64,000 bases of DNA from Azolla caroliniana (lineage: Eukaryota > Plantae > Polypodiophyta): the NCBI GenBank assembly GCA_043228905.1, contig JBHGNT010000020.1:8060001-8124000 (forward strand), read 5' to 3'. The translations under genes were made by a program, and so were the position numbers. Below the pieces are notes generated by a model. The model did no database searches. It saw only the letters and a program-made list of their open reading frames with translations, and was not told the origin of the DNA. This document shows positions 16,661-54,862 of the stretch, piece by piece (positions within the stretch are counted from its first letter, which is position 1; the number at the start of each line of letters is the position of its first letter).

Positions 16661-17341
16661 GCAAAGTTGGGAGATGTTGGAGAAGGAAAAACACTAATTT
16701 TGATGTATCTTCTTGCTATGGTGTCCATTTCCTTTGTTATTTAGCTCGTTTCAAAGCCTGCACATAGAGCTCTCTAAAGAGTATTTGCACGTATCATTTG
16801 GTGGTCTTGGTAGAACGTTACGAGTAAAAATTCCATTCAGTTGCATGCTTCTCATGGTCGCTTGCTTTGATTCCTTCTTCAACACAATTACTTGTAAGTG
16901 AGCTCTCTCCTATTTCTTATCATATGGATGGTAGTGTTTTCATGAATATGGATGAGTCTCCAAATTCTTCAAAGGATGCATGCATGGTTGAGTCAGTATT
17001 AAGCCCAAGAGGGGATGGTAAAAGAAAATGATGTATTGGAGATAATAGTCATTGGGAACATTTAAGATTCATGGCAAATATATTAATGGAAGATTGTATA
17101 AGGGAGAATGTGAAAGTTGCTAAGGAGTTTGTTGACGATGAAGTGGCTAAGGTAGAAATAGACAATAAGGAGTATTTGGGCTTATTTGCTAATTTTTGTG
17201 ATAAAGGGGTCATATTGTTTTTCACGGGGAAGATACCTTTCCTTTGGAGGGTCAAACAATGGTTATGTGGGATTTTACAAGCTGATTGTGTTCAGGATGT
17301 TTATGCTAGTCCTCGTGGATTTTATGAGGTTGTTTTGGTAT

Positions 17342-18704
17342 TGTGGTGGTCACATGGACCACACCTAGATTAGGCCCCTACCAAGCCCCATGCACCACAC
17401 ATAGACCACACCCAAATTAGGCCCCTACCAAGCCTCATGCACCACACCCAAACTAGGCCCCCACCAAGCCCCATAATTAGTAGAGCTAATTGGAGCGGGA
17501 GAACACCCTCCACGCTAAGAGAGAGTCTATAAAATGTAACTTGAGACATAATGAAAAAGGAGGCTATTCTTGAGAGCATTTCACATCTTGAGCATTTCAC
17601 ATCTTGGTGGAGAAGACGGGCCAAGCCACCCCAACTCACGACCCCAACAACGCCCGCCACGATGCAACACGACAACAACGATGGCAACACAAACTCGATG
17701 AATCCGGAATTCCTACAACACAATCAAGGACACCAGCCCACATCGCCAATCGACCAACTGGTTCAAGCTCTGTCCAACATCATTTTACAAGTTAACCATA
17801 CTAACCAAGCCATGTTGTCCTTTCTCTCAGCCTACATCGATCCGCTGCACTCAACCTGGGACCGAATCTTGCCCTTCGTTACGCATGCCTACAACACAAC
17901 TGTGCAAGCTTCTACCCGCATTAGCCCATTTCGGGCCCTTTACGGAAGGGACCCGCGCTTACCCCCAGAAGTGGCAGTCCCGCAACCAACCACACGACTC
18001 CACGCTGACGCAGTGTCTTGGTGGTCCCACCTACAACAACTCCAACCCCTCCTCCGCAAAGCCATCACGAGCAACCTGCACCAGGCACAACTACGCCAAA
18101 AACGACAACACGATATAGGCCGTGTCGACCATCAATACCACGTCGGTGACAAAGTCCTCGTCTACTTCCCCATCCGTCGTCGCGGTCTCAGCGAATCGCT
18201 CATGCACCGATGGATCGGTCCCTTCGAAGTTCAAAAGCAGATACGCGACACTACATACCTGCTCCGCCGCGCCTCCAACAACCGCTCTACCTTTGCTCAC
18301 CAGTCTCGCATGAAGCCCTTCCATCAACTACCACCGCCCCCGCCCACACTCATGCCTACGCCCACGCTCGTGTCATCCCCCCGTCTGGAACCGTCGTCCA
18401 CGCCTCGTCGCGCTTCGACTGCACAATAACTTTTTTTTTTTTTTTTTTACAAGGGGGAATTGTGGTGGTCACATGGACCACACCTAGATTAGGCCCCTAC
18501 CAAGCCCCATGCACCACACATAGACCACACCCAAATTAGGCCCCTACCAAGCCTCATGCACCACACCCAAACTAGGCCCCCACCAAGCCCCATAATTAGT
18601 AGAGCTAATTGGAGTGGGAGAACACCCTCCACTCTAAGAGAGAGTCTATAAAATGTAACTTGAGACATAATGAAAAAGGAGGCTATTCTTGAGAGCATTT
18701 CACA
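17342..18704 (+). mobile_element. Internally deleted mini Ty3/Gypsy element (TRIM-like, 1363 bp)
   Basis: 244-bp LTRs 17342-17585 and 18461-18704 (TGTG...CACA, 2 differences); 4-bp TSD GTAT; PBS TGGTGGAGAA at 17605; T18 tract plus PPT AAGGGGGAAT before the 3' LTR. Confidence 0.95.
17551..18429 (+). CDS. Uninterrupted ORF of the mini-Gypsy: short putative gag N-terminus fused to integrase C-terminal half
   Basis: W..ILPFVTHAYNTT...SPF..LYGR.PRLP, VGDKVLV and WIGPF (GPY/F module); start codon uncertain (17551, 17662 or 17698). Confidence 0.7.
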   Translation: MKKEAILESISHLEHFTSWWRRRAKPPQLTTPTTPATMQHDNNDGNTNSMNPEFLQHNQGHQPTSPIDQLVQALSNIILQVNHTNQAMLSFLSAYIDPLHSTWDRILPFVTHAYNTTVQASTRISPFRALYGRDPRLPPEVAVPQPTTRLHADAVSWWSHLQQLQPLLRKAITSNLHQAQLRQKRQHDIGRVDHQYHVGDKVLVYFPIRRRGLSESLMHRWIGPFEVQKQIRDTTYLLRRASNNRSTFAHQSRMKPFHQLPPPPPTLMPTPTLVSSPRLEPSSTPRRASTAQ

Positions 18705-23051: not shown

Positions 23052-23074
23052 AACGAAATAAAGCTTAGACACAT

Positions 23075-23129
23075 GGACTCGAACCCATGACCTTATGTTA
23101 CATGGCTCGAGCTCTTGACCATTAGACTA
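23075..23129 (-). promoter_or_regulatory. tRNA-like Pol III A-box/B-box cassette inside the Tcn1-like LTR
   Basis: Minus strand TAGTCTAATGG...AGGTCATGGGTTCGAGTCC; T8 to T54 distance is 46 nt, as in canonical tRNA. Confidence 0.7.
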
Positions 23130-23276
23130 TATGTTGTAATACGAAAGATATTCTTTTCATTTAGATTTTACTATAGAAAATTGATGTATATTCCAGATTT
23201 CTCTGGAACATTCTAGAAACTTCAAGAGCACTCCTGAGAACACTATAAAAGGAGGCACAAGGCATTATTTCAAACC

Positions 23277-23515
23277 AAATCGGTTCAACACCAGTCTTAA
23301 GCCTCCTAGCTACTATTGTATATTCCCTTAACATAATATATATCTTTTGTTATCCTCATTCTCTCTCTCTCTCTCTCTCTCTCCTTCTCTCGAGAGTTCT
23401 ACACCTCCTTTAGTACTAATCCTCATCTTTTAGTACTAATTCCTTCTCTGTTTTAGTACTGTTCTTGACAATACTTCTCTGTCTTAGTACTGCTCCTGAC
23501 AGTTTGAACCGATTT
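23277..23515 (+). other. Putative self-priming pair (transcript 5' end / PBS)
   Basis: AAATCGGTTCAA (23277-23288, 33 nt after TATA at 23244) is the exact reverse complement of TTGAACCGATTT (23504-23515), just after the LTR. Confidence 0.8.
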
Positions 23516-26786: not shown

Positions 26787-27100
26787 TGTTGAGAATCAAG
26801 CTCAACTTGGTCTAGTGTGTGAACTCACCTTGAGAGTGAATAGACACTCCAACGGTCAAGAGTCACCATTAAGTCACCACTTTGTATTCTAGCATTTAGT
26901 ATAAGTCATAGAATCATATTCTATGACACATAACTTATGAGCTTTCACATTCCCCCTGATCCATGAGTCTTGTAGTTAATGAAGAGAGAGGGTGACTATA
27001 TAAAGCACCCTCCTCCCACCTTGTATGGTGTTGAGTCTTTCTCCTTTGTCAATATACTTAACCTTGCGTATACTCTGTGTGTGTGTCTCTCTCTCTATCT

Positions 27101-27135
<35 letters not shown>

Positions 27136-30100
27136 TTCACACCTATTCCGCTTCACAAGAATCCATCTCTTGATTCTTTACATGGTATCAGAGCGATTTG
27201 GTAGCTCGATCTAGCCCATTCGCCTCATCGTGATCGTGTGTTGTGCTCTACGCCGATGACCAAGAACCGGCTTATCGCTATCGTAGCTTCGCTACATAGC
27301 TCACATTTGAAGAGAGAAGAAGAAGAAGAAGAATCGACATAATGAATACTCAAATTGGGAGCGCTCTCCCTATCGAGAAGTTGGATTGAAACAACTTCGC
27401 ATCTTGGGAGTACAAGATGCACCAATACCTTGTCGGACAAGGCTAGTGGAGCTACATCAAAGGAGCACATGAAGACCGACCCGCCGAAGCGGCTCCCGGA
27501 TACGCGACATGGGAGCAAGCCGCAAGCCGCGTGATGTATTTCTTGGCGACATGTGTTCACGATCACATGCTCGGCTACATTCGCGAAGCCAAGACGCCGA
27601 AGGAGGCATGGGAAAATCTACAAAAGATTTTCGCGGCGAACACAACCACAAGAAGGCTTCAACTCCGCCAAGAGTTGAACAACATTCAACAAAGGGACAT
27701 GTCCATGACGACATACACCTCGAAGATCAAGGAGCTTTGCGATTTGCTCGGCTCAATAAGCGTAAATATCGATGATGATGAGATGGTTCAAATATGCCTC
27801 GGTGGCCTCACATGGTTCGGCGCGATGTGAACCGCCGTTCTAGCACGGGAGAAATCTCCCTCCTTCTTCGAGCTCCAATCAATGCTATTGGTCGAAGAAA
27901 ACCACGTGCGTACAAGGAGCAATGATTTGGAAGGCCACATGCTCTACATGCACTCGAACGGAGGAAGAGGATGCAGACGATCGAGAGGCCGATTCGGCCA
28001 AGGACAAGGTGGACGAGGTTCGACCTACGACAACAACTCCCAATTTCAGCCGCAAAACGGAAGCCAATGAGGAACCCTCGCAAGAAGGGGGAGCTTCCAC
28101 TCCGGCCCGAGCCGTCAAAACGCAATCGAATGCGGATATTGCGGAAAGCTCGGCCACTACGAAGAAGAGTGCCGAAAGAAGATGCGTGAATCGGGTTCCA
28201 CAAGCCGACAACTCACAAATTACGCGCACAATTCCGACTACGAAGAGTATAGCGGAATGTATGGGAACAACTCCGACTACGAAGATTGTGGCAGAATGTA
28301 TGTACGCAACTCCGACCGTGGCGGTATGTTCATGATGAAACATAGAGCAAACTCTATGTCGGCCTCTACCTCAACTAGTGCCCTCAATCCGGAGGACGTA
28401 TGGTTTGTTGACTCCGGAGCCTCAAACCATATGACATCCCATAAAGAATGGTTTCTCGAACTTCGAGAGCCAGAGCGACCCGGTTATGTCGAAACCGGAG
28501 ATGACACTACGCACCCGATCCGACACATCGGCAATATTCCATTCGGCGAAAGAGGTAAGCAAACATACATTAAAAATGTCTTGCATGTTCCCACCATCAC
28601 GAAGAATTTGGTCTCGGTCGGCCAAATGATTGAGCAAGTGATGCAAGTACGATTCGACCAAGATGGGTGCTTTATCGAAAAAGAAGGCCGAATCATCGCA
28701 CGCGGAAGAAGAGAGGGCCGGATGTTCATTCTCGATTCTCACGAGATGAAATCCGCCATGTTCGCGAAAAACACGAAAGCCGACTCCGACATAGAGCTAT
28801 GGCATAAGCGAATTGGCCACATCAATCTCAACAAACTCAAAGCAATGAAATCTAAAGGAGTCGTCATCAGACTCCCGACATTCAAAGAGAAGGAGATTGA
28901 AGGTGTATGCGAAGCGTGCCAATTCGGCAAGCAACACCGACACCCATTCCCAAAAGAGCGGAACGTGAGCAAAGGTCTACTCGACGTAGTCCATTTTGAC
29001 GTATGGGGACCGGCGCAAACGGCTACATTCGGTGGATGCCGATACTACGTGCTCTTCATCGACGAATTCTCTAGGCACACTTGGATCTACCCGATGCGGC
29101 AAAAGAGCGAAGTGTTTGGACACTTCCAAACATTCAAGAATGAAGTTGAGAAAGCCACGGGTCGACATGTACGTTGTCTTTGATCAGATGGCGGCAAGGA
29201 GTACTTCTCGGGCGATTTCAAGGCGTATCTCCGAACGGAAGGAATTCGGCGAGAATTCACTTGCCGACACACTCCGCAACAAAACGGAGTAGCTGAGTGC
29301 AAAAATCGGCACATCCTCGAAGTAGCGCGGGCCATGATGAACGAGAAGCATATGCCCAAGTCATATTGGGTCGAAGCTGCAAATATGGCCGTCTACCTAA
29401 TGAACCGATGCACAACATCCGGCGTGCACGAGGTCACTACACATGAAAAATACTTCGGAGAGAAGCCAGACTTATTGCACATCCGGATATTCGGCGCGAT
29501 AGCGTACGTGCACATCCCCGACGAGAAGCGTCAAAAGCTTGATCCGAAGTCGGAGAAATGTATCCTCATAGGATACTCACTGGAGCAAAAGGGGTACAAG
29601 TGCTACAACCCCTCAACTTGAAAATCTCGAGTAAGTCGAGATGTTGTTTTTGACGAGTCGCATCCTGGTACGCACCAGAGACAACTCCAACTCCGACTCC
29701 GCTCGACCAGGAATCCTCCGAACAAGAGATAGAGGATGAGGATCGCCTTACGCGCATGTTCGAAGAGAGTCTAATCACGACCCGACTGAGCGGACCACAA
29801 TAGCCTTTGAGCAATCAAAGCACATCACGGCCTAGCCCGAAGATGGACAAGGGCAAGGCGAAAATGGCGGATATGCTGATGATCGTTTCAACGACGACGA
29901 GTAGACTCACTCACTCGACAGTGAGTTCGGCGGCTTTGATGTACCAATCGGAGCTAAGAAAGCCCTCATCTCAACAAATGGAAAGCTCCGTCACTCCACC
30001 CATGAAAAGAATTCGGTCAGCCGATTCGGCTACAACGACTACATGGCATATCACTATGCCTTTACGATGAAGGTGGCGACAGTACACGAGCCAGAAAGTT

Positions 30101-32276
30101 TTTCCGAAGTAGCCAAGGATCCGCGATGGATCGAAGCCATGAATGAGGAGATGCAGGCACTACGCAAGAACGAGACATGGGATCTCGTTCCCACCTCACC
30201 ACACAAAAAGGCGATCGGATGCAGATGGATTTACAAAGTGAAGTACAACGCCGAGGGTTCCGTCAACCGCTACAAAGCGCGACTCATAGCGAAAGGCTAT
30301 GCCCAAACGCATGGAGTTGACTACGAGGAGACCTTTGCCCCGGTGGCAAAGATGACGACGGTACGGACCGTAATTGCGCTTGCCGTGGCGAAAGGGTGGC
30401 ACCTCCATCAAATGGATGTCAAGAACGCCTTTCTACAAGGCGAATTAGAAGAGGAGGTGTACATGATACAACCACCCGGCTTCGAATCACGCATTCATCC
30501 GAAAGCTGTGTGCCGACTCAAGAAGCCACTCTACGGCCTCAAGCAAGCACCGCGTGCTTGGCATTCGAAGATAATGCAATATCTTCATCAAATCGGCTTC
30601 CGTATGTCAAAATCGGACAACTCCCTCTACATACGAAACGATTGTGCAAGTTTGATCGTCATCAACTTATATGTGGATGACCTAGTCATTGGAGGTGAGT
30701 ATCTCGTCGAAATCAATAAGGACAAATTCCTCCTTTCCGACAAGTTCGAGATGACAGACATGAAGGAACTCCACTACTTCCTCGGCATCGAGGTAATTCG
30801 GACTCCAGCCAGAATCATGATTTCTCAACGGCACTACATCCTCAACTTGTTATACAAGTTCGGTATGGCTAAGTGCAAATCCATGGCAACCCCGCTCGAT
30901 CGTAATCTCAAACTAGATGCGAACTCCGGCACCAAAGTGTGTGAGCCGAATCAGTATCGGCAACTCATCGGAAGTCTCATCTACCTCACGATCACTCAAC
31001 CCGATCTCAGTTATTCGGTCGGTCTCCTTAGTCAATTCATGCAAACACCGCGTGATACTCACTTGGATTGCACTAAGCGAGTTTTACGGTACGTGAGCGG
31101 CACAATGGATTGCGGTATCCTCTACAAGACCGCGATGCCAATATGCCTTGAGGGGTACACAGACGCCGATTGGGCCGGCTACAAAGCCGATAGAAGATCA
31201 ACCTCCGGATTTGTTTTCTCCCTTGGCAGCGGAGCAATATCCTGGAGCAGCAAAAAGCAACCAACTATCGCTCTTTCGAGCATAGAGACAGAATACAAGG
31301 GCGCGACAGTGGCCGCATGTGAAGCCATATGGCTCAAGAGGATTTTGAAGGATCTGGGTGTACCCATCAAGGATCCGACTTCCCTTTACTGCGACAACAT
31401 GAGCAGTATCTATTTGGCTCAGAACCCGGTGTTCCACGCGCGGACAAAGCACATCGAAGTGCACTATCACTTCATCCGAGAGCGCGTTCTAGCTGGCAAT
31501 GTCGACCTACAACACATTAGCACCAATCTTCAAACGGCCGACATCTTCACTAAAGCATTAGGAGCCGACAAGCTGTGGCAATTCATGACCGATCTCGGAT
31601 TGACGATCCCTGACCTGCCAAGCTTGAGGGGGAATACTGAAGACATTACGCAATAACACGTGGATTACGCAACCGCGCAACAAAGCCGCGAAGAGCCGAT
31701 CTACCGCGCAAAGCCGCGAAGAAAGACGCAAGTCGAAGCACAGACTTCACAACTACGCACAACGCAAGCTGGAGCACGGATTCCGCAACTCCGCATAAAG
31801 CGAGTCGACACGAGTCGACGCGGACTCCGGAACGCGAGTCGAAGTGGATTTCGGACACCGTCTGAAACCGACCCGACTTGAGCTTGAGGGGGCATGTTGA
31901 GAATCAAGCTCAACTTGGTCTAGTGTGTGAACTCACCTTGAGAGTGAATAGACACTCCAATGGTCAAGAGTCACCATTAAGTTACCACTTTGTATTCTAG
32001 CATTTAGTACGAGTCATAGAATCATATTCTATGATACATAACTTATGAGCTTTCACATTCCCCATGCTCCATGAGTCTTGTAGTTAATGAAGAGAGAGGG
32101 TGACTATATAAAGCACCCTCCTCCCACCTTGTATGGTGTTGAGTCTTTCTCCATTGTTAATATACTTAACCTTGCGTATACTCTGTCTCTGGGTCTCTCT
32201 ATCTATCTCTCTCTCTCTCACACACACAATTCACACCTATTCCGCTTCACAAGAATCCATCTCTTGATTCTTTACA
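26787..32276 (+). mobile_element. Full-length Ty1/Copia element A nested in the Tcn1-like pol
   Basis: LTRs 26787-27182 and 31895-32276 (TGTT...TACA); TSD GACAC/GATAC; tRNA-iMet PBS 27183-27194; PPT 31884-31894; gag-PR(WFVDSGAS)-INT-RT-RH with several stops and frameshifts. Confidence 0.96.
30043..31656 (+). pseudogene. Copia A RT-RNase H open segment (537 aa)
   Basis: YVDD, YTDADWAG, ADIFTKAL; upstream pol is disrupted. Confidence 0.9.
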
Positions 32277-33271
32277 GATACCATACGTGAGGACTTGAAG
32301 ACAAATGTTTTCGCTCAAGCCATTCTAGCACAAATTTATCCCTCTTGAGCATCTTGTTCACAGTCGCAACAAACATGTATGGACTATCGACAATTCGAAT
32401 GTCTTGATGGATTACTATTCTTTAAGAAACTCTTGCATGTTCCTAATGGTACTTGTCGCCTTCAAGTAGTCCAAAACTGTCATGACACATACAACTGGGT
32501 ATTTTGGTAGTACTAAAACACTAGATTTAGTACAATGATCCTTCTGGAGGCCCCATATACGACAATTTGTCGAAGATTTTTTTCGGACTTTTGATACATG
32601 TTGCCAAGCAAAAATGCCAAGGCATCATCCATATGGTTTATTAGAACAAAATGTTACCAATTCCAAGCAAGCCATGACAATCCATTGCCCTAGATTTCAT
32701 CACAGATCTTCCGGTCTCTAAGGGATTCAATGCGATCTTAACAGTAGTAGATCAATATACGAAGATGGCCCATTTCCTACCATGTACTAAGGAAATCTCC
32801 AGTGAAGAAACTGTCGGGAACTCAACGCTCCTTATGCACAAAGCTCGGCCACAATCGAGATTCTTTTCATACACAGAAAACAGGAAACGAAAAACACGAC
32901 TCAAAGGAGAGTAAGATACACAGGAGGTTTACGTGGAAAACCCCAAACTAGGGGAAAAACCACGGCAGCCCACAAGCTGCAAACTGTCACTATGTAAGAA
33001 TGTACAAAACAGTGAGTTCACGGAGGCAACGACCTCGGACTCACGATCTTCGCCACAGGCGGCGGTTACAACAGAGGCAACGACCTCGTCTCTCTCTCTC
33101 TCTCTGTACAGTTACGCACTCTCTCTTCTTCTTGCACCAACAAGAAAAATAACAACATCATAATATTAGTTTGCCCTAAGTCATATTTATACTAATATGA
33201 CTTTTCGGCTATTTACAAATGTAGCCTCGATGGGCTCTTAGAAACATATTTACGAATATGTCTCTTCCTCT

Positions 33272-33595
33272 GGTTCACACCGGGCCTGCACCATCCGGCT
33301 CTCCGTAGCCGGGTACTCCTCATCCGGTTCACACCGGGCCTGCACCATCCGGCTCTCCGTAGCCGGGTACTCCTCATCCGGTTCACACCGGGCCTGCACC
33401 ATCCGGCTCTCCGTAGCCGGGTACTCCTCATCCGGTTTACACCGGGCCTGCACCATCCGGCTCTCCGTAGCCGGGTACTCCTCATCCGGTTCACACCGGG
33501 TCTGTATCATCCGGCTCTCCGTAGCCAGGTACTCCTCATCCGGTCTTCACCGGGTCTGCATCATCCGGCTCTCTGTGGCCGGGTCCACCTCATAC
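33272..33595. repeat. 54-bp CCGG-rich tandem repeat x6 in U3 of the 3' LTR of Copia B
   Basis: Unit ggttcacaccgggcctgcaccatccggctctccgtagccgggtactcctcatcc. Confidence 0.93.
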
Positions 33596-36500
33596 GGTCT
33601 TTGGCACTGATCTTCTCCCTTCCCATCCGGAGGGACCTGTCTCCCAACAAACTCCCCCTTCACTCCGGCATGGGGTGTCCTACCAGTCCGATTCTCTTCC
33701 GGCATGCGTCCAGCTTGTCGGGTGTCAGCACTTTGGTCAACATATCTGACCCGTTCTCGGTCGTGTGGATCTTCGTCAGTGCGAACTCCTGGTCATCTAC
33801 TCTTTCCCGGATCCAGTGATACCTCCGTTGGATATGCTTCGTCCGGGAATGGTAGGCCGCATTCTTAGCAAGGTGGATGGCACTTCGACTGTCGTAGTAG
33901 AGTCGGTATTCCTCTTGCCGGATACCGAGCTCTCCGATGAAGTCCTTCATCCATAATATTTCCTTGCCGGCTTCCACAGCTGCCATGTACTCCGCCTTCG
34001 TGGTTGACAATGCAACCGTCTTCTGCAACCTCGACTGCCACGAAACAGCTCCCCCTGCATATGTCATCACATACCCGGATGTAGACCGGCTGGTATCCAC
34101 ATCAGCCGACATGTCCGAATCGGTGAAACCGTCCAGTTGAGGTTTTCCGGAGCCGAATCGGAGACACATATTTGAAGTGCCCTTCAAATACCGGAGTATC
34201 CATTTGACTGCGTTCCAGTGCTCCTTGCCGGTATTGCTCATAAACCGGCTCACAACCCCTACTGCATATCCTATATCCAGTCAGGTACACACCATTGCGT
34301 ACATCAAGCTCCCGACGGTAGAGGCATATGGGATCTTCATCATTTCCGCCTTCTCTGCTTTCGTCTTCGGGCTTTGCTTGCCGGATAGCTTGCAGTTTGC
34401 CGGAAGTGTCGATCCGACCGGTTTCGCTTCTGACATGTTGAACCGGTGAAGCACCTTTGTCACATACTTCTCCTGTGACAGCCATAATTGCTTCTTTGAC
34501 CGGTCCCGAATGATGTGCATCCCCAACATCTGTCTTGCCGGACCCAAGTCTTTCATTGAGAAGGTCCGGTTGAGAGCCTTCTTTAGCATCCGTATTTTGA
34601 CTTGGTCACGTCCGACGATCAACATGTCATCCACGTACAGAAGGAGTATCAGGAAGTCGCCTCCTTCAAACTTCTTCACAAACACGCAATGATCGGCCTG
34701 CGTCTTGTGGTACCCTTGATCGGTCATGAAGGAGTCGAACTTCCGGTACCATTGATGGGGAGCCTGCTTCAGTCCGTACAGGCTCTTCTTCAACCGGCAT
34801 ACCAGGTGCTCCTTCCCTTTCTCCACGAATCCTTCCGGTTGCTGCATGTAGATCTCCTCTTCGAGGTCGCCGTGAAGGAATGCCGTCTTCACGTCCAGCT
34901 GCTCTACCTCAAGGTCCATGCTTGCTGCTATACTCAGCACCGTCCGGATGGAGGTCATCTTTACTACCGGGGCAAATATCTCGTCGAAGTTCACACCCTT
35001 CTTCTGCTGGAACCCCTTCACCATGATCCTGGCTTTGTATCTCGGGGGGTTGCCGGCATCTCCCGGTTTCAACTTGTACACCCACTTGTTTCGGAGTGCC
35101 CGCTTTCCTTTCAGCAACTCCACCAATTGGTATGTATGGTTCTCATGCAGGGAATCCATCTTGTCCTGCATGGCACTTAACCATTTTCGGCTGTGGGTGT
35201 CTTCCTTCACTTCTTCGAAGCTTTCCGGCTCCCCCTCATCGGTCAGCAGCACATGCTCTGCATCCGGAAATCTCCGGGGGGCCCTTCTCTCTCTGAGAGG
35301 ATATCTACATCTTCGGGCTTCGGTAGCCGGCTCCTCCATTTGCTCTTCATCCGAATCCGATTCGGGGTCTTGGCCGGTTCTGGTTTCAGCTTCCTCTACT
35401 TCTTCTTCTGCCGGTTCGGTATCCTCACCGTAACCGGCTGGTTCCTCCAGTGCTAACCGGTCTCTTGCCGGTTGGGTCTGCTCATCGTAGAGTCTATCCT
35501 TACTGGTCGACTCAGAGTTCATTATCTTCTTCTCCGACTCCCAGTCGGCGAGTGTCTTGTCGTCCATGAAGATAATATCTCAACTCCGGAATACCTTCTT
35601 ATCGACCGGGTCCCACACTCGGTAGCCGAACTCATCGTCACCGTAACCGAGGAATATGCATGGCCGGGTCTTTGGATCTAGCTTTCCTCTCCGGTCTTTA
35701 GCTACATGCACGTACGCGAGACACCCGAACACCTTCAGATGTCGGTAGGACACTTCCTTACCGGTCCATACTCTCTGTGGCGTGTCTCCGTCCAGGGGTA
35801 CTGAGGGTGATCTGTTTATCACGTATGTCGCCGTCGACAATGCCTCAACCCAAAACTTCTTGGGTAGGTTTGCATGCGCTAGCATACTCCGGACCCTCTC
35901 CATTATGGTCTGGTTCATCCTCTCGGCCAGTCCGTTTAGTTCCGATGTCTTCGGCACGGTAAATTCGAGCCGGATTCCCTTCGAGCGGCAGTACTCCTCG
36001 AACTGCCCCCGGTACTCTCCTCCGTTATCTGCTCGAACCGCCTTCAGCTTCAGGCCGGTTTCTCTTTCCACTCTCGCGTGGAGCTCTTTGAAGACGGATA
36101 ACACCTAATCCTTTGTCTTCAACGGTGTGGCCCACAGCTTCCGGTTGTGGTCATCTATGAACGTCACGAAGTACTGCGCTCCGGCATGTGACTTCGTGTC
36201 TACTTGACACACATCCGTATGCACCAACTCCAATGGTGCATTACGTCTCATCGGTGGCCTTGGTCGGAAGGAGGTGCGGTTCTGCTTACCGGCCAGACAA
36301 TCAGTGCACTTCTCTAAGTGCACGTTCTTCACTAGAATGAGGTTGTCGTCTGCAAGCCTCTTCATCCCCTTCTCGCTCATATGACACAGCCTCTTGTGCC
36401 ACAGCTCACTGGCAGTGTCGGATGCCACGTTCACTTCTTCCGGACATAACCGGGAATTCATCAGGTACAATGTGTTTACCTTCCGGGCCCGAGCCACAAT

Positions 36501-38194
36501 CAGGCTCCCTTTGCTGAACTTCATGACACCATTCCGAATGCTACCCGTGTAGCCTTCATCATCTAGCCGACCGGCTGATATCAGGTTCAGACGAACCTCC
36601 AGAACGTGTCGGACATCCTTCAGCAGCAACTTGCATCCGGTTGGTGTTGTCAGCCACACGTCTCCTATGCCGACAATTCGGCATGTACCTTCATTCCCCA
36701 TCCGGACACAGCCGTGGTCACCGGCTGAGTAGGATGCGAAGCATTTCCGGTCCGGGGTAAGGTGGAACGACGCTTCGGAGTCTACCACCCAGGTCATCTC
36801 GTCGCCGGCAAGGTTTATCTCACTCTCCTCGGTGATGAACATCAACTCCTCTTCACTTGCCGCGATTGCCGTCGTTCCCTTCCGGTCCGGACCCCTCCGG
36901 TCTTTACCGTTTCGGTCCGGGGTTTGCTTCGAATCAGTACCGTCGGTTTCCTTGTCTTTATGGAAATGCCGACAGTTCTTTTGGAAGTGTCCCGGCTTGC
37001 CGCAATAGAAGCAAGTAGGCCTCCCCCTTGACTTTGACCGTGTCCCCGACTTCTCCCGGTTCTGGGGACTACGGTTTCTCTGTCTTCCGCGTTCCGATTC
37101 GGTAAGGAGCGCTTTGGAGTCGGAGCTCGTATCTTTATCCTTCCGACGCGCCTCCTCATCTAGCAAGCTCGACTTTACTCTTGCTAGGGATAACTGTTTT
37201 CGTTCCGGCCCGGCGTTGCCCAAAGTGACAACCAACGTCTCCTAGCTATCCGGGAGGGAACCGAGCAGGAGTAGCGCAAGTACCTCATCGGCGAGAGGTA
37301 CTTCCAATGAAGTTGCCTAGTGGATCAGCCCTTGGAAGGCATTCATGTGCTCCGCCTTGCTGGAGCCATCTTGGTACCGGAGTCTTACTAGCTTCCGGAA
37401 TACTGACACCTAATTGACATCATTTTTGTTCTGGAACATTATGCCGATCTTCTCCTAGAGCTCATGAGCCTTGCTCTCTTCATTGAAGTTGTTGTACAGG
37501 CTCATGTCGATGAAGCACCGTATGTACGTCGTTGTCTTCATGTGCATCACCTCCCATATCGCAGCGTCGATTTTGTCCGGTCTCTTGTCCCCGAACTGAA
37601 CCGGAAGCCAGAGGTCTTTAACCACGAGCATGTCCCTCATCTTCGACTTCCACACTGAGTAGTTGGAGCCGGTGAGCTTGAACATGCCGCCAAACGATTC
37701 GTCCATTTTCTGTGTCGTTTCGCTCTGATACCACTTGTCGGGAACTCAACGCTCCTTATGCACAAAGCTCGGCCACAACCGAGATTCTTTTCATACACAG
37801 AAAATAGGAAACGAAAAACACGACTCAAAGGAGAGTAAGATACACAGGAGGTTTACGTGGAAAACCCCAAACTAGGGGAAAACCCACGACAGCCCACAAG
37901 CTGCAAACTGTCACTATGTAAGAATGTACAAAACAGTGAGTTCACGGAGGCAACGACCTCGGACTCACGATCTTCGCCACAGGCGGCGGTTACAACAGAG
38001 GCAACGACCTCGTCTCTCTCTCTCTCTCTGTACAGTTACGCACTCTCTCTTCTTCTTGCACCAACAAGAAAAATAACAACATCATAATATTAGTTTGCCC
38101 TAAGTCATATTTATACTAATATGACTTTTCGGCTATTTACAAATGTAGCCTCGATGGGCTCTTAGAAACATATTTACGAATATGTCTCTTCCTC

Positions 38195-38465
38195 TGGTTC
38201 ACACCGGGCCTGCACCATCCGGCTCTCCGTAGCCGGGTACTCCTCATCCGGTTCACACCGGGCCTGCACCATCCGGCTCTCCGTAGTCGGGTACTCCTCA
38301 TCCGGTTCACACCGGGCCTGCACCATCCGGCTCTCCGTAGCCGGGTACTCCTCATCCGGTTCACACCGGGTCTGTATCATCCGGCTCTCCGTAGCCAGGT
38401 ACTCCTCATCCGGTCTTCACCGGGTCTGCATCATTCGGCTCTCCGTGGCCGGGTCCACCTCATAC
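38195..38465. repeat. 54-bp tandem repeat x5 in U3 of the 5' LTR of Copia B
   Basis: Same unit, one copy fewer, accounting for the 838 vs 784 bp LTR lengths. Confidence 0.93.
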
Positions 38466-39292
38466 GGTATTTGGCACTGATCTTCTCCCTTCCCATCCGG
38501 AGGGACCTGTCTCCCAATAGAAACCGCCAAAATTGTCATGCGTCAAGTATGTCGGCATGATGGCCTTCCTGATAGTACCATCAATGACTGTGGACCCCAG
38601 TTTGTCTCAATGTTCTGGAAGCACCTCTTTAAAATGCTTAAGGTCACTTGTAACCTCTCCTCCGGCTACCACCCACAAACAGACGGCCAAGCAGAACGAA
38701 CAAATCAAACGTTGGAGCAGTATCTTCGGTGCTTTTTAAGGTATCATCAAGATGACTGGCGGATATTCTCCACTTCGCCGAATTTGCATATAATAACTTT
38801 GTCCACTCATCGACAAAGGTGACACAATTTTATGCTTACACGGGTTGTCATCCCCGGTGGTGTGTATTTGAAACCCTAGAGTTACCCACGAATCCTTGTG
38901 CAGAGGATCATTTGGAGTGGCTATGTAAGATACAAGAGGATTTATCTACTCATCTACAACAAGCTCAACAAACACACAAGGTTTACGCGGATTGTCATCG
39001 GCTTCCATCCAATTTTGACATTGGAGATCGGGTGTGGTTACTACGATGACACATCAAGACTAGTCACCCATGCGAGAAGTTGGATTATTGGCGATTAGGT
39101 CCTTTTTGTATTATCGGAAAAATTAATGATGTCGCTTTTCGTCTCGATCTACCTCCACAACTTTGGATACAACCAATGTTTTAGAGTTCTCTCCTCGAAC
39201 CCTATCAAGACATCACCATCCCTGGTCATATTAAACAATCTCCACCTCCGATCAAGCTTGAAGATGGACATGTGTATGACGTTGCCGCTATC

Positions 39293-40509
39293 GTGTGGTT
39301 TTTCACACACGATATGAAAACTATTTAAAAATAATAATAATAAATAATAAAATAAGCATTTTATATTAGCTTAGTGGCTTGTTATAGAAATATGGATGTA
39401 CTCAAGAGCTTCAAAACGCATTTTACTTCATATAAAATAGACAAATACATATCAAGTTATGTGAACATGAAGTTTGAGAAGATAGGGAAAATAGAACATG
39501 ATTTATCTCACATAGATAGGAAACTTAAGGCCTTGACTATATAAGCACATTGAGATTCCATATTTTTCATTTGTGCTAAGAGCACTTTGGCCACTTTGTC
39601 TAGATTGATAAATGTGGCCAAGTTCCCAAAAACCGATTGACAATAAAATGGAACCGGAACCAACCGGTAAGCAAACCAGCACCGTCCGGTAATCAAACCG
39701 GAACCGGCCGGTAAGCAAACCGGAACCGGCTGGTAATCAAAATGGAACCGGCCGGTAAGTGAACCGGAATTGGCTGGAAATCAATTCGGAACCGGTCGGT
39801 AAGCCGGACACCAAATTGGAATCGACCGGTAAGCAAATCGGAACCGACTGGAAAGCAAACTGGAACCGACCGGCAATCGAACTGGAACCGGACTGGACGG
39901 ATTGGATGGGCGGCGATCGAGATGGACAGATGATTGGATCATGTGGCTAATTAAAGTAAAGTAAAGGAAACTAAAGTAAAGGCCATATGGACGGTCGCAT
40001 GCAACTAAAAGAAAAAGCCATGCAACTAAAAATGGATGCAACTAAAAGTAGAGTCCATGCAACTAAAAGTGGGCATGCAAAGTAACATTGAATGCTATGA
40101 TCAACAGAGAACTGCATATAAATTCCATTTTTTTTTCTGCACTCATTCTCTCTCTCAATTTTTATTTTCTTTTCCTTCTTAGCTCCCTTATCTTATCGAA
40201 GCCATAACACTCAAAAACCCTAATTTTCCCTACGGAAGCCATAACACTCAAAAACCTTAATTTTCCCTACGGAAGCCATATCTCTCAAAACCCCTAATTT
40301 TTCTTTTCTATTAATCTTAGTAAACCTAAAACTTCTGAATCCCAATCTTGGGACATATTGTAATTTCTTTTCCTTTGTTAATGAAAATGATTAAATTTCT
40401 TATTTTTGTTAATTGTTAAAAATATAAAAGCACGAATGTGATATCCTCTAGTCGGAGGCCCCGGGGTCCTGCCTCAAGTTCACGTATCCTCATCGTATTT
40501 TCGCGACAC
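39293..40509. mobile_element. Unclassified non-coding 1.2-kb insertion (probable non-autonomous DNA element)
   Basis: Splits the chromodomain; flanked by decayed 7-8-bp duplication (C)CGCTATC/(C)TGCCATC; GTGT...ACAC ends; internal arrays of (GG)AACCGG, ATGCAACTAAAA and GAAGCCATA repeats. Confidence 0.8.
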
Positions 40510-42071
40510 TGCCATCCTCGATTCCAAGATTGTTCGCAACAAGCTCTACTATTTAGTCGATTGGCTAGGATATAATCCCAATGAGCGTACTTGGGAACCA
40601 ATAGAGAGAACACTATAAAAGGAGGCACAAGGCATTATTTCGAACAAAATCGGTTCAACGCCAGTCTTAAGCCTCCTAGCTACTATTGTATATTCCCTTA
40701 ACATAATATATATCGTTTGTTATCCTCATTCTCTCTCTCTCACACACACACTCTCTCCTTCTCTCTAGAGTTCTACACCTCCCTTAGTACTAATCCTCAT
40801 CTTTTAGTACTAATTCCTTCTATGTTTTAGTACTGTTCCTGACAGTACTTCTCTGTCTTAGAACTGCTCCTGACAACATGAAGGTTGAAGCGAATTGGTG
40901 GAATGTAATTAATTCTGATAGGGATGTCAAATGTACAAGGTCTATGGTAGTTAATCATTTGTTGACATCTTGGCAAAGTATGTTGGATTTTGTGGAATGG
41001 CATCCCCCACAAGACAGGGGATGTGCCAATTCATTACAAATGGAGGTTTCATCAAGGTTGTTGAGGTGGGAAGGTAAACAAATTCTTAACCTTCAATTTA
41101 ATCGGATGGCTAGATTGGGTTTGGTAACAATTAAGGATGCTATGTTGGTTTCACAAAGAAGAGTAATGGCTTTTCGAACAATGAGATCAACATTTCGTAT
41201 TCCAGAAGGTTATAACTTTATTTGGGATAAGTTGCAACAAATACTATCTTCACATGAGCCAATTCCTAATTTAGATGGGCAATCTCAAGAGCTTGATTGG
41301 AAATAAGAGATTGACTATGATCTCAACGAATGTTGCTTATCACAAGTTGATTGACAAACATAAGTGGTTGGAAGAAAGGGTTATAAAGATATGGGGTTTT
41401 CATAAGCCCATTACTTGGTGGATTCATGTGATCAAGGCAGGTTTGTGTTCTCGATTGATGCTACGAGCCAAGGTATTTATTTGGAGAGTTATGGTTGGAG
41501 CTTTACCATTAGGCGATGCATTAAAAAAAGACATTACTAAAGGATTGTGTTTCTTTTGTTTGATGGAATTGGAACATAGTAGGCATTGATTTATTTCATG
41601 GCCGATGGCAAGGATGGTTTGGAGGTGTATCAATTTAGTGTGGATGTCTCTAACAGGAGTAAGTCTATCTTCCTTCAGTTGGGTTTTTGCACATATGGAG
41701 AACAATGAACCGATGTATCATTTTCAAATTAGTTTTGAGTTCTTGAGGTATTGGGGGCTATGGTTCAATTGGAATATGCGGAATGCCTTCATTTTTTATT
41801 CACAAGTTGGGGTGAGAAAATATGTTCTAAAGTTAAAAGGACTTCTTTTGTGGCAAATGACAGTGCTAGAGAAGTCATGAAATCTCAACCAGGAAGAGAG
41901 AAAACTCTGCAGGTCACATATCATCATACTCGCCATTTGAATTGGTGTGTAGGGTGGCATTGAGTTTGGTATTGTAATATCCTTTAGATCCCTAGATGGA
42001 AGGGTTCTATACTTTGTAGTAAGTTAGTCATGGTGGTGTTTTTTTCTTTCGTAATGAAAACCATTATTTAC

Positions 42072-48910: not shown

Positions 48911-48965
48911 TGACTTTGCCACCGTCACTGTCATGAGTATAGATGAAACCCCATGAGGTTTAGGG

Positions 48966-49020
48966 TGACTCGAACCCGTGACCTCCCAAGTAAAAGCACT
49001 CAGCTCTAGCCATTAGGTTA
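48966..49020 (-). promoter_or_regulatory. tRNA-like A-box/B-box cassette in the 5' LTR
   Basis: Minus strand TAACCTAATGGCTAGAGC...GGAGGTCACGGGTTCGAGTCA; T8 to T54 distance 46 nt. Confidence 0.7.
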
Positions 49021-49409
49021 TATATGTTGTACATAAAGATATTATAATTTACTTTATTATAATATTGATAATGTGACCCTATAAATATCCAAAGGGTGAC
49101 ATGACCCTTCAATATCCCAAAGGGTATCATGACCCTACAACATCCCATAGGGTATCATGACCCTACAAACATCCAAGGGGCACATACTACTCCTATATAA
49201 ATAGGACATATTGTATTGTTAGAACCATTCTGGTTCAACACTAGTCTTTGGCAAATATTCTAGCTCTTGCTCTTGTATATTTTTGTATTATAATAAAATA
49301 TAGTTATTGTTCTCTCATTCTTTTCCTCTCTTGTTCAATCTTCTTTTGTCAAGCTAGGGCCTTGACAGTTTGAACCAGAATATCTTCTCTCTTTCTCTCT
49401 CTCTTTCTC

Positions 49410-49449
<40 letters not shown>

Positions 49450-52400
49450 TTCCTTCTTTTTCTTGAGAATCCTATCAAGCGTTATCGTAGCCATGGAGTC
49501 AGTTAGCAAGCAAGAGTATCTTCGAGTCATCTCTGAGATCAAGCATCTCACAAATAAGTTTTTGGCTCTAGTGCAAGAGAATCAACGATTTCATGGAGAT
49601 TTACAACAAGTAAGCATAGAAAAAGGTAACAATATGACGAGTTATCAACACGTGTATTGCAACTCGAAACAACATTGCGGTCTCTTCATCAACAAGCTTG
49701 GATGCAACAATGCTCTCCCAAAGAACCAAAGATTTATTTGCCCGGAAAGTTCGATGGTAATCGATCACAATTTCGAGGATTTCTAAATCAGGTGCATCTA
49801 GTAATTCATATGCATCCTAATAGATATCCAACAGATACAACTCGAGTTGGACTAGTAGGAACCCTTTTAACAGGAACGACATTAGCATGGTTTGCACCAC
49901 TTCTAGAAAAGAAATCTCCTCTCCGTCAAGACTTTGAAGGTTTTATTAAAGAATTTCAAGCAAACTTTGGAGACATTGATAGTGTTAGAACGGCGATCTA
50001 TAAAAATCGAAGACTTCGTCAAGGGGATCGTTCCGCCTCCGCTTACGCCGCAGATTTCCGCCCCCTAGCTTGTGATATTCCATGGGATGAAGAAGCATTA
50101 ATGGATCAGTTTCGCCATGGACTATGAAATGATGTAAAAGATCGCTTACAGAAGCAATAAGTTGTGCGGTGCGATGTGACAATCGCTAATTCGAGTGATG
50201 TTGAGAACGTCAACTAATGTCACGACCAAGAACGGATCAAACATATGCTTTAGTAGTAGCCTCGACACCTACGAGAACTACCCAAACTTCACGCATGATT
50301 CCATCAAGTGGAGATCGATGGAGATCGATGTAACATGTCGTTGAGGACCTTTGTTTGAAGCTGAGAAGCAATGATGCCGAGCAAACCGTCTATGTTTGTA
50401 TTGTGGTGGTCTGGGACACATAGCAATCACCTACCCACATGGGCCAAAACGACAAGTAAATCAAGTAAGTACTAGTGAGAAACTTAATTCCAATTCCCCA
50501 GTTAGATCATCTATCCCTAGTAGCCCCACATGTCTAGGCCAGAGTCAGCTTGATGAAATATTAAACGAATAAGTCCAATCAAAATCAGATCCATTTGGTT
50601 CGACAAACCAGAATATGTAAAGTCAGCCCCAAGTAGTGGTTCCATTTTATCGAATCATGTTAGTAGAGTTTTTTCACCACAAGTTGATCTTAGCACTTCT
50701 AGGTGTCATCGAGTTCTTGCCTCTGCTCTCTTAGATTCAAGAGCCAACTCTTGTTTTATGGACAAAGAATTTGCTTTATCCCAAAAAATCCTATTGAGAA
50801 ACCTCCCTTGTCCTGCATTTGTTGTAGTCATTGATGGTCGCCCTATTGCATCTGGGGATAAAGTTGAAGAATCTAAGCCAATTCGAGTAGTCCTTGGTAG
50901 CTTTGCTTGTGTGATGTCCTTCAATATAATTAGTAGCCCTGAGTATCCGGTTATCCTTGGTTTGCCTTGGTTTGAGCTTCATAATCTTGAAATTGACTAG
51001 AGAAATCGAGCAATCAATGATTTACAACAGAAACCTGAATCCAACAGCCTTGTTACTACCAACCAAGATTCAAAACCTCACCAAATCTCGCCCATATCTC
51101 TACAAAACTTACGAGAAGACGGGCAGACAAATGAAATGTTTGTCTTTGTAGTAATGGCAAATCCATCCTCTAGTTCATAAGGGGCATGTATTCACCTCCC
51201 TACTAAGTACTTGGATTTTGAAGTCATCTTCAACAAAACTAAAGCTAGCTCTCTTCCAGACCATCATCCTTATGATTGTCCAATCGATCTAAAACCTAGG
51301 AAAGAGCCACCATGGGGCCCAGTGTATAATCTATCACCTTTTGAACTCAAGGCCCTTCGAGAGTATATAGATGAGCACTTAGCAAATGGATTCATTCAAC
51401 ATTCTAAAAGCCCTACTGATGCACCCATCTTCTTTGTCAAGAAGAAAGATGGGTCTTTATGATTGGTCATGGATTATCGAGGTTTAAACAAAATCACAGT
51501 TCGAAATAGATATGCTCTACCCTTGATACCGAGATTACTAGAGCGTCTTAGTGGAGCTAAAGTTTTCACAAAGCTAGACCTTCGAGGCGCATATAACCTT
51601 GTTCGGATACGTCCAGGAGACGAATGGAAGACAACATTCCATACTCAATACAGAAATTTCGAGTACACGGTTATGCCTTTTGGTCTCACAAATGCGCCCA
51701 CAGTTTTTCAACACATGGCGAATGATATTTTTTGAGACTTCTTGGATTCATTTACCATACTATATCTTGATGACATCTTGATCTACTCGAAAAGTCAAGA
51801 AGAGCATGACACACATGTCCACCAAGTCCTCCAACGCTTACGAGAATATGGGCTCTATGCCAAACTCGAGAAATGTAGCTTTGATCAAAACCACGTGGAC
51901 TTTCTAGGGTATGTGGTTTCACAACAAGGTATATCTATGGATCCATCCAAGGTGCAGACAATTCTAAACTGGGAAACACCTCGCTCAGTGCGTGATGTTC
52001 ATTGTTTCTTAGGATTTGCAAATTTTTACCGCAAATTTATCAAGAACTACTCGAACATCGTGATGCCTCTCACGGAACTTACATGAAAGAACAAGTCGTT
52101 CACATGGATTTCCAGTGCGGCCAAAGCTTTTGAAAACCTAAATAGAGCATTCACTTCTGCTCCTATTCTACTTCATGCTGACCTAGAAAAACCCTTTATC
52201 ATCAAGGCAAATGCGTCTGATTTTGCACTAGGAAACTTGTCGCAGGTTGGACATGATGGAAAGCTGCATCCAATTGCTTTCCATTCACGCAAATTCGAAG
52301 CTGTAGAGATCAATTATGAGATTCACGACAAAGAGCTCCTGGCCATTATAGACTAATTTGAACAATGGAGGCATCTCTTAGAAGGTTCTCCACACCAAAT

Positions 52401-54232
52401 CATTGTTTACAATGATCATAAAAACCTCACATACTTTCAAAATGCTAGAGTCTTGAGTCGACGCCAAGCTCGTTGGGCACAATTCCTAACACACTTTGAC
52501 ATCCTCATCACATATCGGCTTGGAGTAAAACAAGGAAAGGCAGATGCTCTATCACGACGATCTTATTTGGCGCCACAACCAGGTGAGCCCACATTTGATC
52601 ATCAAAAGCAAGTCATCCTGGGGCCTGATCTGTTACAACTATTGACTATTAATGCCTCTAAAGCACCTGAAGATTGCAGGCTCCTTGATTCAATCCGAAT
52701 AGGTATCATTTCTGATGAATTTGCTCAAGATGTATTGAATCATATCATTTCAGATCATGTGTCTTCTTCAAAATCCAAGTATCCTTGTAAAGATTATAAC
52801 CAGTTTCAATGGCAAAATGGGTTACTTTTTCGTAACACTCTTTTGTATGTCCCCAATGGTTCGTCTCGACCTCAAGTAATGCAATATTGTCATGGCAACC
52901 CAATGGATGGACACTTTGGAATCCACAAAACTTTGGAGCTAATTTCTCGAAACTATTGGTGGCCTCATCTTCGGGAGTTTGTTGAGGATTATGTTCGTAC
53001 TTGTGATGTGTGTTGTCGGTCAAAGATTCAGTGACATCGATCATATGGGTTATTACAGCCATTGCTAGTTCATTACTGGTCCGTGAAAATCCATCTCTGT
53101 GGACTTTATTACAGATCTTCCACTTTCAAAGGGTTTTGATGCTATCCTCACTGTAGTAGATCGATTCACAAAGATGGCGCATTTTCTTCCATGCACGAAA
53201 ACTATCAACAGTAAAGAAACTGCACATATCATTATGAAAGAAGTATTTTGGCTTCATGGTCTTCCAAATGACATCATTGGTGATCGTGATCCACAATTCA
53301 TCTCAAAATTCTGGAAACACTTGCTTGAAATGCTCAAAGTCTCTTCTAAACTTTCTTTAAGCTATCATCCACAAAGTGACGGTCAAACCGAGCGCATAAA
53401 TCAAACTCTAGAACAATATCTTTGATGTTTCATCAATTATCAACAGGATGATTGCGTGGATTTTTTACACTTTGTAGAGTTTGCATACAATAATTTGGTT
53501 CATTCCTCAACAAGATATCTCCATTTTTTGCAAACATATGATATCATCCTTGTTGGATGATGATCGAAAATCTAGAAATCTCGAAAAATCCTGCCACTGA
53601 GGACCGTCTACGCCAACTCCAAGAAGTTCATGTTGCATTTTCTCACCATTTGCATACGGCTCAAGCCACACACAAGAAGGTTGCGGATCGCCATCATCTT
53701 GACTCCTCACCAGAGGAACTGAAATTTCAAATTGGGGATCGAGCATGGCTATTACGACGTAATGTGAAGACCACTAAACCTTGTGATAAGTTGGATTATC
53801 AACGACTTGGTCCATTTATTATCTCTCATCAGATCAATGATGTTGCATCCCGCCTTTGATCTTCCCCCACACATGCATCTACACCTAGTATTTCATGTCT
53901 CATTGTTGGAACCTTACAATGTTAGTTCCATTCCACATCGGGTTGTTCTACCCCCACCTCTGGTTCAACTTGTTGATGGCCCAAAATTCGAATTCAAAGT
54001 TGTTTTGGACTCCACGATAGTACGTAATCTCGTGTACTGGTTAGGTAATACACCTAATGATCATAGTTGGGAACCGACCGAGAACCTTGACAACGCCTCC
54101 GATCTGGTAGTTGAATTTCATCGCCAATATCCAAATAAGGCAAGCCCCAATTCGTGTATTACGACTCGTGGAACTCATCATCCATGGAAGGAAATGGCAT
54201 CATGAGTAGATGAAACCCCATGAGGTTTAGGG

Positions 54233-54287
54233 TGACTCGAACCCGTGACCTCCTTAGGCGAAGCACTCAGCTCTAACCACTAGGTTA
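54233..54287 (-). promoter_or_regulatory. tRNA-like A-box/B-box cassette in the 3' LTR
   Basis: Minus strand TAACCTAGTGGTTAGAGC...GGAGGTCACGGGTTCGAGTCA; T8 to T54 distance 46 nt. Confidence 0.7.
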
Positions 54288-54862
54288 TATATGTTGTACA
54301 TCAAGATAATATTGATAATGTAACCCTATAAATATCCAAAGGGTTCCATGACCCTTTAATATCCCAAAGGGTATCATGACCCTACAAACATCCAAGGGGC
54401 ACATACTACTCCTATATAAATAGGACATATATTGTTAGAACAACACCAGTCTTTGGCAAATATTCTAGTTCTTGCACTTGTATATTTTCCAATTATAATA
54501 AAATATAGTCATTGTTCTCTCTTTCTTTTCCTCTCTTGTTCAATCTTCTTTTGTCAAGCTACGGCCTTGACAATCATCGCTTATTCCGAATTTATCGGAT
54601 GTGCCGACTTCTTCAGTTGATTCAGCTTCCTTTTTCTTCTTCTCGTCTCCCCCTATCTCTCCGACTCTTTGTCCGGTGCCATCACCTGTTTTCCCAGTTT
54701 CTGTTCTGGTTCTCCCCTCAAGTGTGGCATGTCGAGATGCTAAAGACCAAGCATCTTCAAAAAATGTTGCAACTTGTCCAGGCCGAGAGGTTTGGTGAAG
54801 ATGTCGGCAACTTGCCGATCCGTCCGAACATACCGGACTAGATCATCCATGCATAACAAGAT

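Follow-up and report, generated by a model that had tools for sequence, protein, structure and literature searches.

An antisense, tRNA-derived cassette at the U3 edge of Tcn1-like chromovirus LTRs: conservation and a putative role as a TFIIIC docking site

What use could a retrotransposon that is predicted to prime its own reverse transcription make of a tRNA-like Pol III promoter in its LTRs, and of one that lies antisense to the element itself? The question is raised by three short segments in the DNA analysed here (64 kb, hereafter the window), all within LTRs of two decayed elements that we call element 1 and element 2. Read on the minus strand, positions 48966-49020, 54233-54287 and 23075-23129 each give an A-box, AGAGC, a spacer of anticodon-arm length, AGGTC and GGTTCGAGTC. 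A preliminary description had proposed this reading together with an identical spacing of the boxes, and both withstand re-examination: the A-box runs from T8 to G19 in all three cassettes, and the T8-T54 distance re-measures as 46 nt in 3/3, so that A-box and B-box stand at tRNA spacing in the layout of a type 2 Pol III promoter. The window contains only three B-box-like sites in its 64 kb, all of them cassette B-boxes, and a strict whole-cassette pattern matches it three times on the minus strand and never on the plus strand, whereas an iid model predicts 3e-4 matches. One boundary has to be moved: the element 1 segment does hold the cassette, but its position 23075 is host DNA, since the target duplication ACATG abuts the B-box. 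Three of the four LTRs of elements 1 and 2 carry the cassette, which is absent from both Copia LTR pairs and from all remaining window DNA. The features are as follows.

48929-49367, plus strand: element 2 5' LTR (TG...CA); degenerate 5-bp duplication, GTCAC at 48924-48928 and ATCAT at 54573-54577
48963-49020, minus strand: tRNA-derived cassette of the element 2 5' LTR; A-box 49010-49020, 18-nt spacer 48985-49002
48967-48976 and 48980-48984, minus strand: B side of the same cassette, B-box and AGGTC respectively
49194-49201, plus strand: TATA box of the predicted element 2 Pol II promoter, supported by the sequence and by a position shared with relatives, ~26 nt before the self-primer
49227-49238, plus strand: predicted self-primer of element 2, at the start of R; 12-nt complement of the PBS
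49370-49381, plus strand: predicted self-priming PBS, element 2, 2 nt beyond the 5' LTR
49493-54205, plus strand: broken gag-pol of element 2, interrupted by many stops and frameshifts (gag, protease, RT, RNase H, integrase, SH3, chromodomain)
54186-54197, plus strand: polypurine tract (PPT) of element 2, from sequence and matching position in relatives
54198-54572, plus strand: element 2 3' LTR, its 5' TG decayed to CA, with an 11-nt deletion in the primer region
54230-54287, minus strand: tRNA-derived cassette of the element 2 3' LTR; B-box 54234-54243
23076-23501, plus strand: element 1 5' LTR, lying in a LINE and lacking ~16 terminal nt; duplication ACATG at 23071-23075 and 40876-40880
23076-23129, minus strand: tRNA-derived cassette of the element 1 5' LTR
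23277-23288, plus strand: predicted self-primer of element 1, pairing with a PBS at 23504-23515
40606-40875, plus strand: element 1 3' LTR remnant, without a cassette because of a deletion that runs from the chromodomain into mid-U3

The two elements and their cassette

Both elements are broken, predicted self-priming Ty3/gypsy chromoviruses of Tcn1-like type, with no named Tcn1 reference among the protein matches or in the tree. The element type suggests a non-seed plant as host. Element 2 (48929-54572) has TG...CA LTRs around a 5.6-kb gag-pol unit and shows the gag-PR-RT-RH-INT order with C-terminal chromodomain that characterises Tcn1 chromoviruses; the chromodomain of this decayed copy scores E 1.3e-4, below the Pfam cut-off, and close relatives carry PF00385. 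In each window element the 12 nt just past the 5' LTR complement a stretch ~26 nt below the TATA box, and the predicted self-priming complementarity recurs at 9-12 nt in many relatives. Plant Tcn1 elements, as treated in passages of PMC6317226, PMC2864245 and PMC3350952, share with the window elements the Ty3/gypsy domain order and chromodomain, the predicted self-priming, the 5-bp duplication and the TG...CA LTRs of ~440 bp; the self-priming layout has been predicted for Tcn1 in PMC6317226, in the part of that paper considered here.

Each copy has its own history of damage. In the 3' LTR of element 2 the missing 11 nt (at 54440-54445, between short repeats) take most of the self-primer segment with them. 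The ~16-nt terminal loss of element 1 was judged by comparison with three related loci (L015, L022 and L026), and the element carries two nested Copia elements in its integrase region (26787-32276 and 32812-38518, each with a 5-bp duplication) and one other insert, with 22-nt repeats, inside its chromodomain (~39300-40490). The window also holds a small element at 17337-18704, whose 249-bp repeats are 99% identical and whose only frame is an integrase tail, and which is probably a recent non-autonomous Gypsy derivative.

The LTRs of the two families have little in common beyond the cassette and the primer region, as had been claimed: BLAST aligns only two regions, one with the cassette (72% over 113 nt) and one with the TATA box and primer (69% over 101 nt). 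That the cassette is no functional tRNA is likewise upheld. ARAGORN finds no tRNA in the window (relaxed thresholds give 253 calls, which are noise), Rfam yields no tRNA match, and the four stems pair at shuffle level. The preliminary description was right that the anticodon arm and acceptor stem are not conserved, and incomplete in that the D- and T-stems are poorly paired as well. Its view of a tRNA-derived module kept in elements with predicted self-priming is supported.

Distribution and conservation among relatives

Relatives were picked by protein alone: 12 integrase/chromodomain C-termini were aligned and searched, and the best 80 of 457 confirmed matches correspond to 76 loci. Five loci with too little LTR (L011, L014, L040, L046 and L060) were left unscored, and five with an extra reading frame before the LTR (L044, L047, L051, L054 and L055) were scored separately. 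The cassette is found in 0/5 of the latter, a separate clade in which a frame of ~500-600 nt lies between pol and the 3' LTR. Among the 69 scored LTR starts (66 loci from these best 80 matches, plus the three window LTRs) a full cassette occurs in 46, the B part only in 10 and neither in 13. Grouped at 85% nucleotide identity upstream of the LTR, the figures become 25, 5 and 9 of 39 clusters, with L074 and L076 being one family counted twice; the counts of full and B-part cassettes are partly circular, the call itself demanding a near match. Throughout the scored relatives the cassette is antisense and near the LTR edge, at a distance of 24-73 nt. It is dispensable, for 9/39 clusters are without it and 5 retain the B part only, and several of these have open pol frames.

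Every one of the 53 positive loci belongs to a single assembly series (53/60 scored there), and 0/11 scored loci from other sources carry the cassette. A search for relatives in viral contigs found none, and prokaryote-genome contigs gave five distant loci, with the cassette in 0/4 of those that have DNA past the match. In a quick tree without bootstrap (74 loci and 12 proteins; L045, L075 and the window elements left out) the positives fall into two clades with SH-aLRT 99 each, not shown to be sisters, so that no single origin is shown. Integrase identity among the positive families is 48-85%, with a median of 57% (n=21). Of the 17 full-cassette loci with enough upstream DNA, 16 have pol open over 1183 aa or more, a count that describes families and not single copies because the contigs are collapsed.

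Several loci have peculiarities of their own. A second antisense tRNA-like A/B cassette lies inside pol at L027:~960-1070 on the minus strand, and also in L025, L029, L030 and L031, all of one lineage; it occupies, in frame, a protease-RT linker that is longer than in other families, where the linker has no cassette, and it suggests a repeated capture. The family of L076 and L074 has the A-box that most resembles that of a tRNA, in a cassette (L076:5004-5108, minus strand) whose 7-bp acceptor stem is fully paired; this cassette is perhaps a younger capture or a replacement. A tRNA-Asp gene stands at L003:128-201 (plus strand), ~265 nt from a truncated pol fragment. At many loci (L003, L062, L063 and L070 among them) the pol frame crosses the PPT and reaches its stop codon within the first bases of the LTR, and in L062, L063 and L070 it passes through the B-box complement. 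In the element 1 family a long imperfect hairpin spans the cassette region (23076-23135; also L015, L026 and L059), with z between -3 and -5 in three loci.

What has been conserved is the boxes. Exact antisense GGTTCRA occurs in the first 130 LTR nt of 24/37 cluster representatives; the sense strand has it in 3/37 and the following 130 nt in 2/30, and shuffling gives 0.5 on average and 3 at most. When only the B-box serves as anchor, TGG lies 34-37 nt upstream in 20/31 cases versus 8/72 control sites, and AGGTY becomes visible, its columns agreeing at 81-87% each. Identity between the 23 families is 0.90 at positions 52-58, 0.87 at 44-48 and 0.76 at 14-16, whereas spacer and flanks reach only 0.36 and 0.32-0.39, respectively; expressed as a range, the boxes are 87-100% identical between families and the spacer 36%. 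The G18-T54 spacing is 35-37 in 23/23 families, where the call allows 35-38. Decay of the boxes in step with the rest of U3 had been named beforehand as a possible refutation, and between families the opposite is seen, the boxes being far more conserved than spacer and flanks. The other outcome named, an independent SINE insertion with its own tail and target duplication, did not appear either: with the cassette in 30/39 clusters and no shared tail or target duplication in the aligned flanks, a private SINE insertion is rejected.

The stems have fared differently from the boxes. Pairs are formed at 88/125 T-stem positions (85.6 in shuffles), 57/100 in the D-stem (56.2) and 53/125 in the anticodon stem (51.0); the acceptor stem is at chance except in L076 (7/7 pairs), and the outer T-stem pairs hold in 10/25. 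Watson-Crick pairs in the T-stem reach 58 versus 49.8 shuffled (p 0.008), a figure from which the relatedness of families has not been removed. Covariation at the Levitt pair 15-48 was rejected. Conserved boxes with decayed stems point to recognition of a sequence and not of a fold. Given the number of families, the antisense edge position, the retained boxes and the lost stems, we conclude from sequence comparison that the cassette is conserved and probably selected, a tRNA-derived sequence that is neither a tRNA nor a chance SINE insert.

A selected fold, or a selected address, would be another way to account for the conservation: a hairpin over the cassette, formed just after the PPT in RNA or single-stranded cDNA, or a site on which Pol III-targeting elements land. 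The element 1 family does fold into a long hairpin (z -5.3 and -3.8), and on the sense strand own-family duplexes are stronger than cross-family ones (-10.1 vs -7.9; p 0.017 after dropping four related rows). Yet the duplexes are weak in about half of the families, no pairing register rises above shuffles (best z 1.9 of 26), and neither the window nor the loci compared show an evident TG...CA insertion upstream of the cassette; furthermore, neither window element adjoins a tRNA gene. We consider both versions improbable. Targeting of tRNA genes by the two window elements themselves is rejected on the last of these observations.

The conservation could also be apparent only, a SINE or tRNA copy having entered an ancestral LTR, or passed recently from one co-resident family to another by template switching, and persisting without function. 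In keeping with this, the cassette is lost or half-lost in 14/39 clusters, confined to one source series and found in two clades not shown to be sisters. Within the element 2 family, moreover, variation in three DNA runs is 0.035, 0.031 and 0.010 in the B-box and 0.088, 0.025 and 0.018 in the spacer, so that the B-box is less variable in only 1/3 and about equal in two; decay after insertion is neutral. Nonetheless, the identity of the spacer (0.36) lies in the range of the flanks, against 0.87-0.90 for the boxes, the CpG of the B-box persists in 20/32 clusters, and families with more similar integrases also have more similar spacers (Mantel rho 0.29, p 0.004), a correlation that, on the sequences compared, suggests long vertical descent rather than a recent sweep. 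A neutral relic is disfavoured, and we hold it to be very unlikely.

Candidate roles: docking site, gene or tRNA-binding site

One possibility is that the cassette is a working Pol III gene and acts through its antisense RNA, which would read from the 3' LTR into the PPT and the integrase end, tuning or silencing the element, and from the 5' LTR into host DNA. This is, in our view, rather unlikely. The A- and B-boxes are intact and at tRNA spacing, the region upstream is AT-rich (62-95% A+T), and internal T4 runs are few, though 2/23 with 4.5 expected when the boxes are held fixed is not significant (p 0.12). Against this, the terminator is not conserved: T4 occurs within 45 nt in 9/23 families versus 8.5 by shuffle, and the first T4 lies anywhere from 0 to >900 nt away across families (248 nt for the cassette of the element 2 3' LTR). 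There is also no shared fold (mean z -1.1). A4 is depleted near the pol end to the same degree in families without a cassette, and selection for Pol III read-through into pol is rejected on that ground. The antisense transcripts suggested in the preliminary description accordingly find no support.

Alternatively, it is the U3 RNA just after the PPT that matters, binding a host tRNA by complementarity to its D-, variable and T-loops and so aiding packaging, dimerisation or strand transfer. There are precedents: in Ty3, U3 pairs with the primer tRNA through the T-psi-C and D arms of the latter (passages of PMC5371799), and in HIV-1 a tRNA-Lys3-like sequence in U3-R reportedly promotes strand transfer (as relayed in part of PMC6468702). 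These resemble the cassette in placing a tRNA-arm complement in the U3 of an autonomous element, and the antisense orientation, the position next to the PPT, the invariant positions 44-47, the fixed spacing and the preference for CA over TG all fit. Ty3 and HIV-1, however, match one specific primer tRNA (same sources), whereas the window cassettes have no tRNA primer and keep universal loop bases only, and the bases neighbouring these vary by family in the cassettes, unlike in Ty3 and HIV-1. Because the elements are predicted to self-prime, no tRNA would be tethered to the cDNA. A match to one single tRNA is argued against as well, since positions 44-61 take 22 different sequences in 23 families, positions 49-51 take 12, and the outer T-stem holds in 10/25. 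The substitutions, too, are unlike wobble tolerance: G-to-A is rare at positions 45, 46, 52 and 53 (0, 1, 2 and 0 of 29) and C-to-T common at 48 and 61 (11 and 5 of 29), which is the reverse of the change favoured by tRNA annealing. In the window the B-box complement resembles the self-primer. The two vary independently, though: the primer sequence differs in L027, L049, L058, L062 and L063 with the box unchanged, and a second self-primer site is thereby rejected. Overall, we judge tRNA binding in U3 RNA a serious but unlikely alternative.

The reading that we prefer, with moderate confidence, is that the antisense A-box/B-box unit at the outer U3 edge of two self-priming chromovirus clades works as a putative TFIIIC (and TFIIIB) docking site that would form a boundary. 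TFIIIC sites can act as chromatin barriers, and C56 is generally taken to be invariant in the GTTCRA B-box; the CpG pattern of the cassette B-box (CG 20, CA 11, TG 1 of 32 clusters) fits such a site. The TATA box and R region lie downstream of the cassette on the opposite strand. A boundary would be well placed at the outermost U3, where the predicted TFIIIB site points toward the Pol II promoter. Consider, then, an ancestor that captured a tRNA or SINE head, or a cassette that spread between co-resident families. Selection would keep the boxes; TFIIIC (and TFIIIB) would dock on the cassette as DNA, TFIIIB loading on the AT-rich U3 between cassette and TATA box, ~170 nt from the latter; and the docked factors would separate flanking silent chromatin from the element's own Pol II promoter. 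If Pol III made an antisense RNA at all, its length would vary and it would be a by-product. On indirect evidence, the chromodomain is thought to steer such elements to heterochromatin (a passage of PMC3350952), and the boundary would protect LTR transcription after chromodomain-guided insertion into repeat-rich chromatin.

At the same time, some features speak against TFIIIC docking. A textbook B-box demands neither an invariant A44 and T47 nor a spacer fixed at 18 nt, and the CpG asymmetry is also predicted by RNA annealing through G-U wobble, the clusters being related besides. Within the element 2 family both CA and TG variants of the B-box occur, CA being the commoner in 4/4 runs (48971-49006), and the CpG neighbouring the B-box CpG is skewed the opposite way.

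Relation to known LTR cassettes and meaning for the family

Pol III cassettes in LTRs are already known, and what seems to be new here is the antisense version in an autonomous element. The nearest relatives are the Helenus TRIMs (also TRIMp3; Kojima 2024, PMC10886601, from passages and supplement), which contain a tRNA-derived sequence in the LTR with conserved A- and B-boxes, a tRNA function being unlikely and the promoter role inferred there from conservation only. They share with the cassette the tRNA-derived sequence inside the LTR and the AGGTY-N3-GGTTCGA arrangement, the same AGGTY in which A44 and T47 of the cassette are invariant. Unlike the window elements, Helenus is non-autonomous (311-1263 bp), tRNA-primed and sense, so that its box can drive its own RNA (B-box strings in the supplement run 206 sense vs 13 antisense, and Helenus-1_SMo is sense); the window elements have the cassette antisense at the 5' edge of U3, together with gag-pol-chromodomain, a TATA box and predicted self-priming. 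Cassandra and Ajax TRIMs resemble the cassette in having an LTR Pol III promoter from a small-RNA gene, and differ in being 5S-derived, sense and non-autonomous, with transcription demonstrated for Cassandra (same passages). The antisense orientation excludes the role of transcribing the element that the box has in Cassandra and Helenus. Autonomous partners of Helenus are expected to use Pol II, and other Repbase LTRs show tRNA similarity, only TRIMs having been analysed in the passages of PMC10886601; segments of this kind may for that reason have been seen but left undescribed.

The preliminary description knew of no account of this arrangement, and we found none of an antisense cassette in autonomous chromovirus LTRs in the literature outside REXdb supplements, Repbase and subscription journals; the claim did overlook Helenus and the Ty3 and HIV-1 U3 precedents. 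Main-text passages of the Tcn1 papers PMC6317226, PMC2864245 and PMC3350952 make no mention of a tRNA-like or Pol III element in the LTR, a term search of PMC3601003 gives no mention of an antisense LTR cassette, and a sugar-beet preprint, in the part considered, mentions TRIM cases only.

Regardless of its exact role, the cassette is a real, conserved, lineage-wide feature whose function is inferred. The LTR Pol III cassettes known so far belong to non-autonomous mini-elements and are able to drive their RNA; an antisense cassette in autonomous families with integrases ~57% identical cannot drive element RNA, and hence needs another job. As a putative docking site, it would offer a mutable handle, one B-box base, on the way in which chromodomain-targeted elements remain expressible in heterochromatin, and it predicts many extra TFIIIC sites in the host genome. 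The cassettes are also a source of false tRNA or SINE calls. More tentatively, a tRNA gene may have been domesticated as a portable insulator by autonomous chromoviruses whose insertions go into silent chromatin, each new copy bringing a TFIIIC-bound boundary on both sides, an idea that we regard as possible but doubtful. If it were true, Pol III factors would occupy thousands of LTR edges in TE-rich non-seed plant genomes and shape chromatin there, and the second capture inside pol in one lineage would speak for a recurrent strategy.
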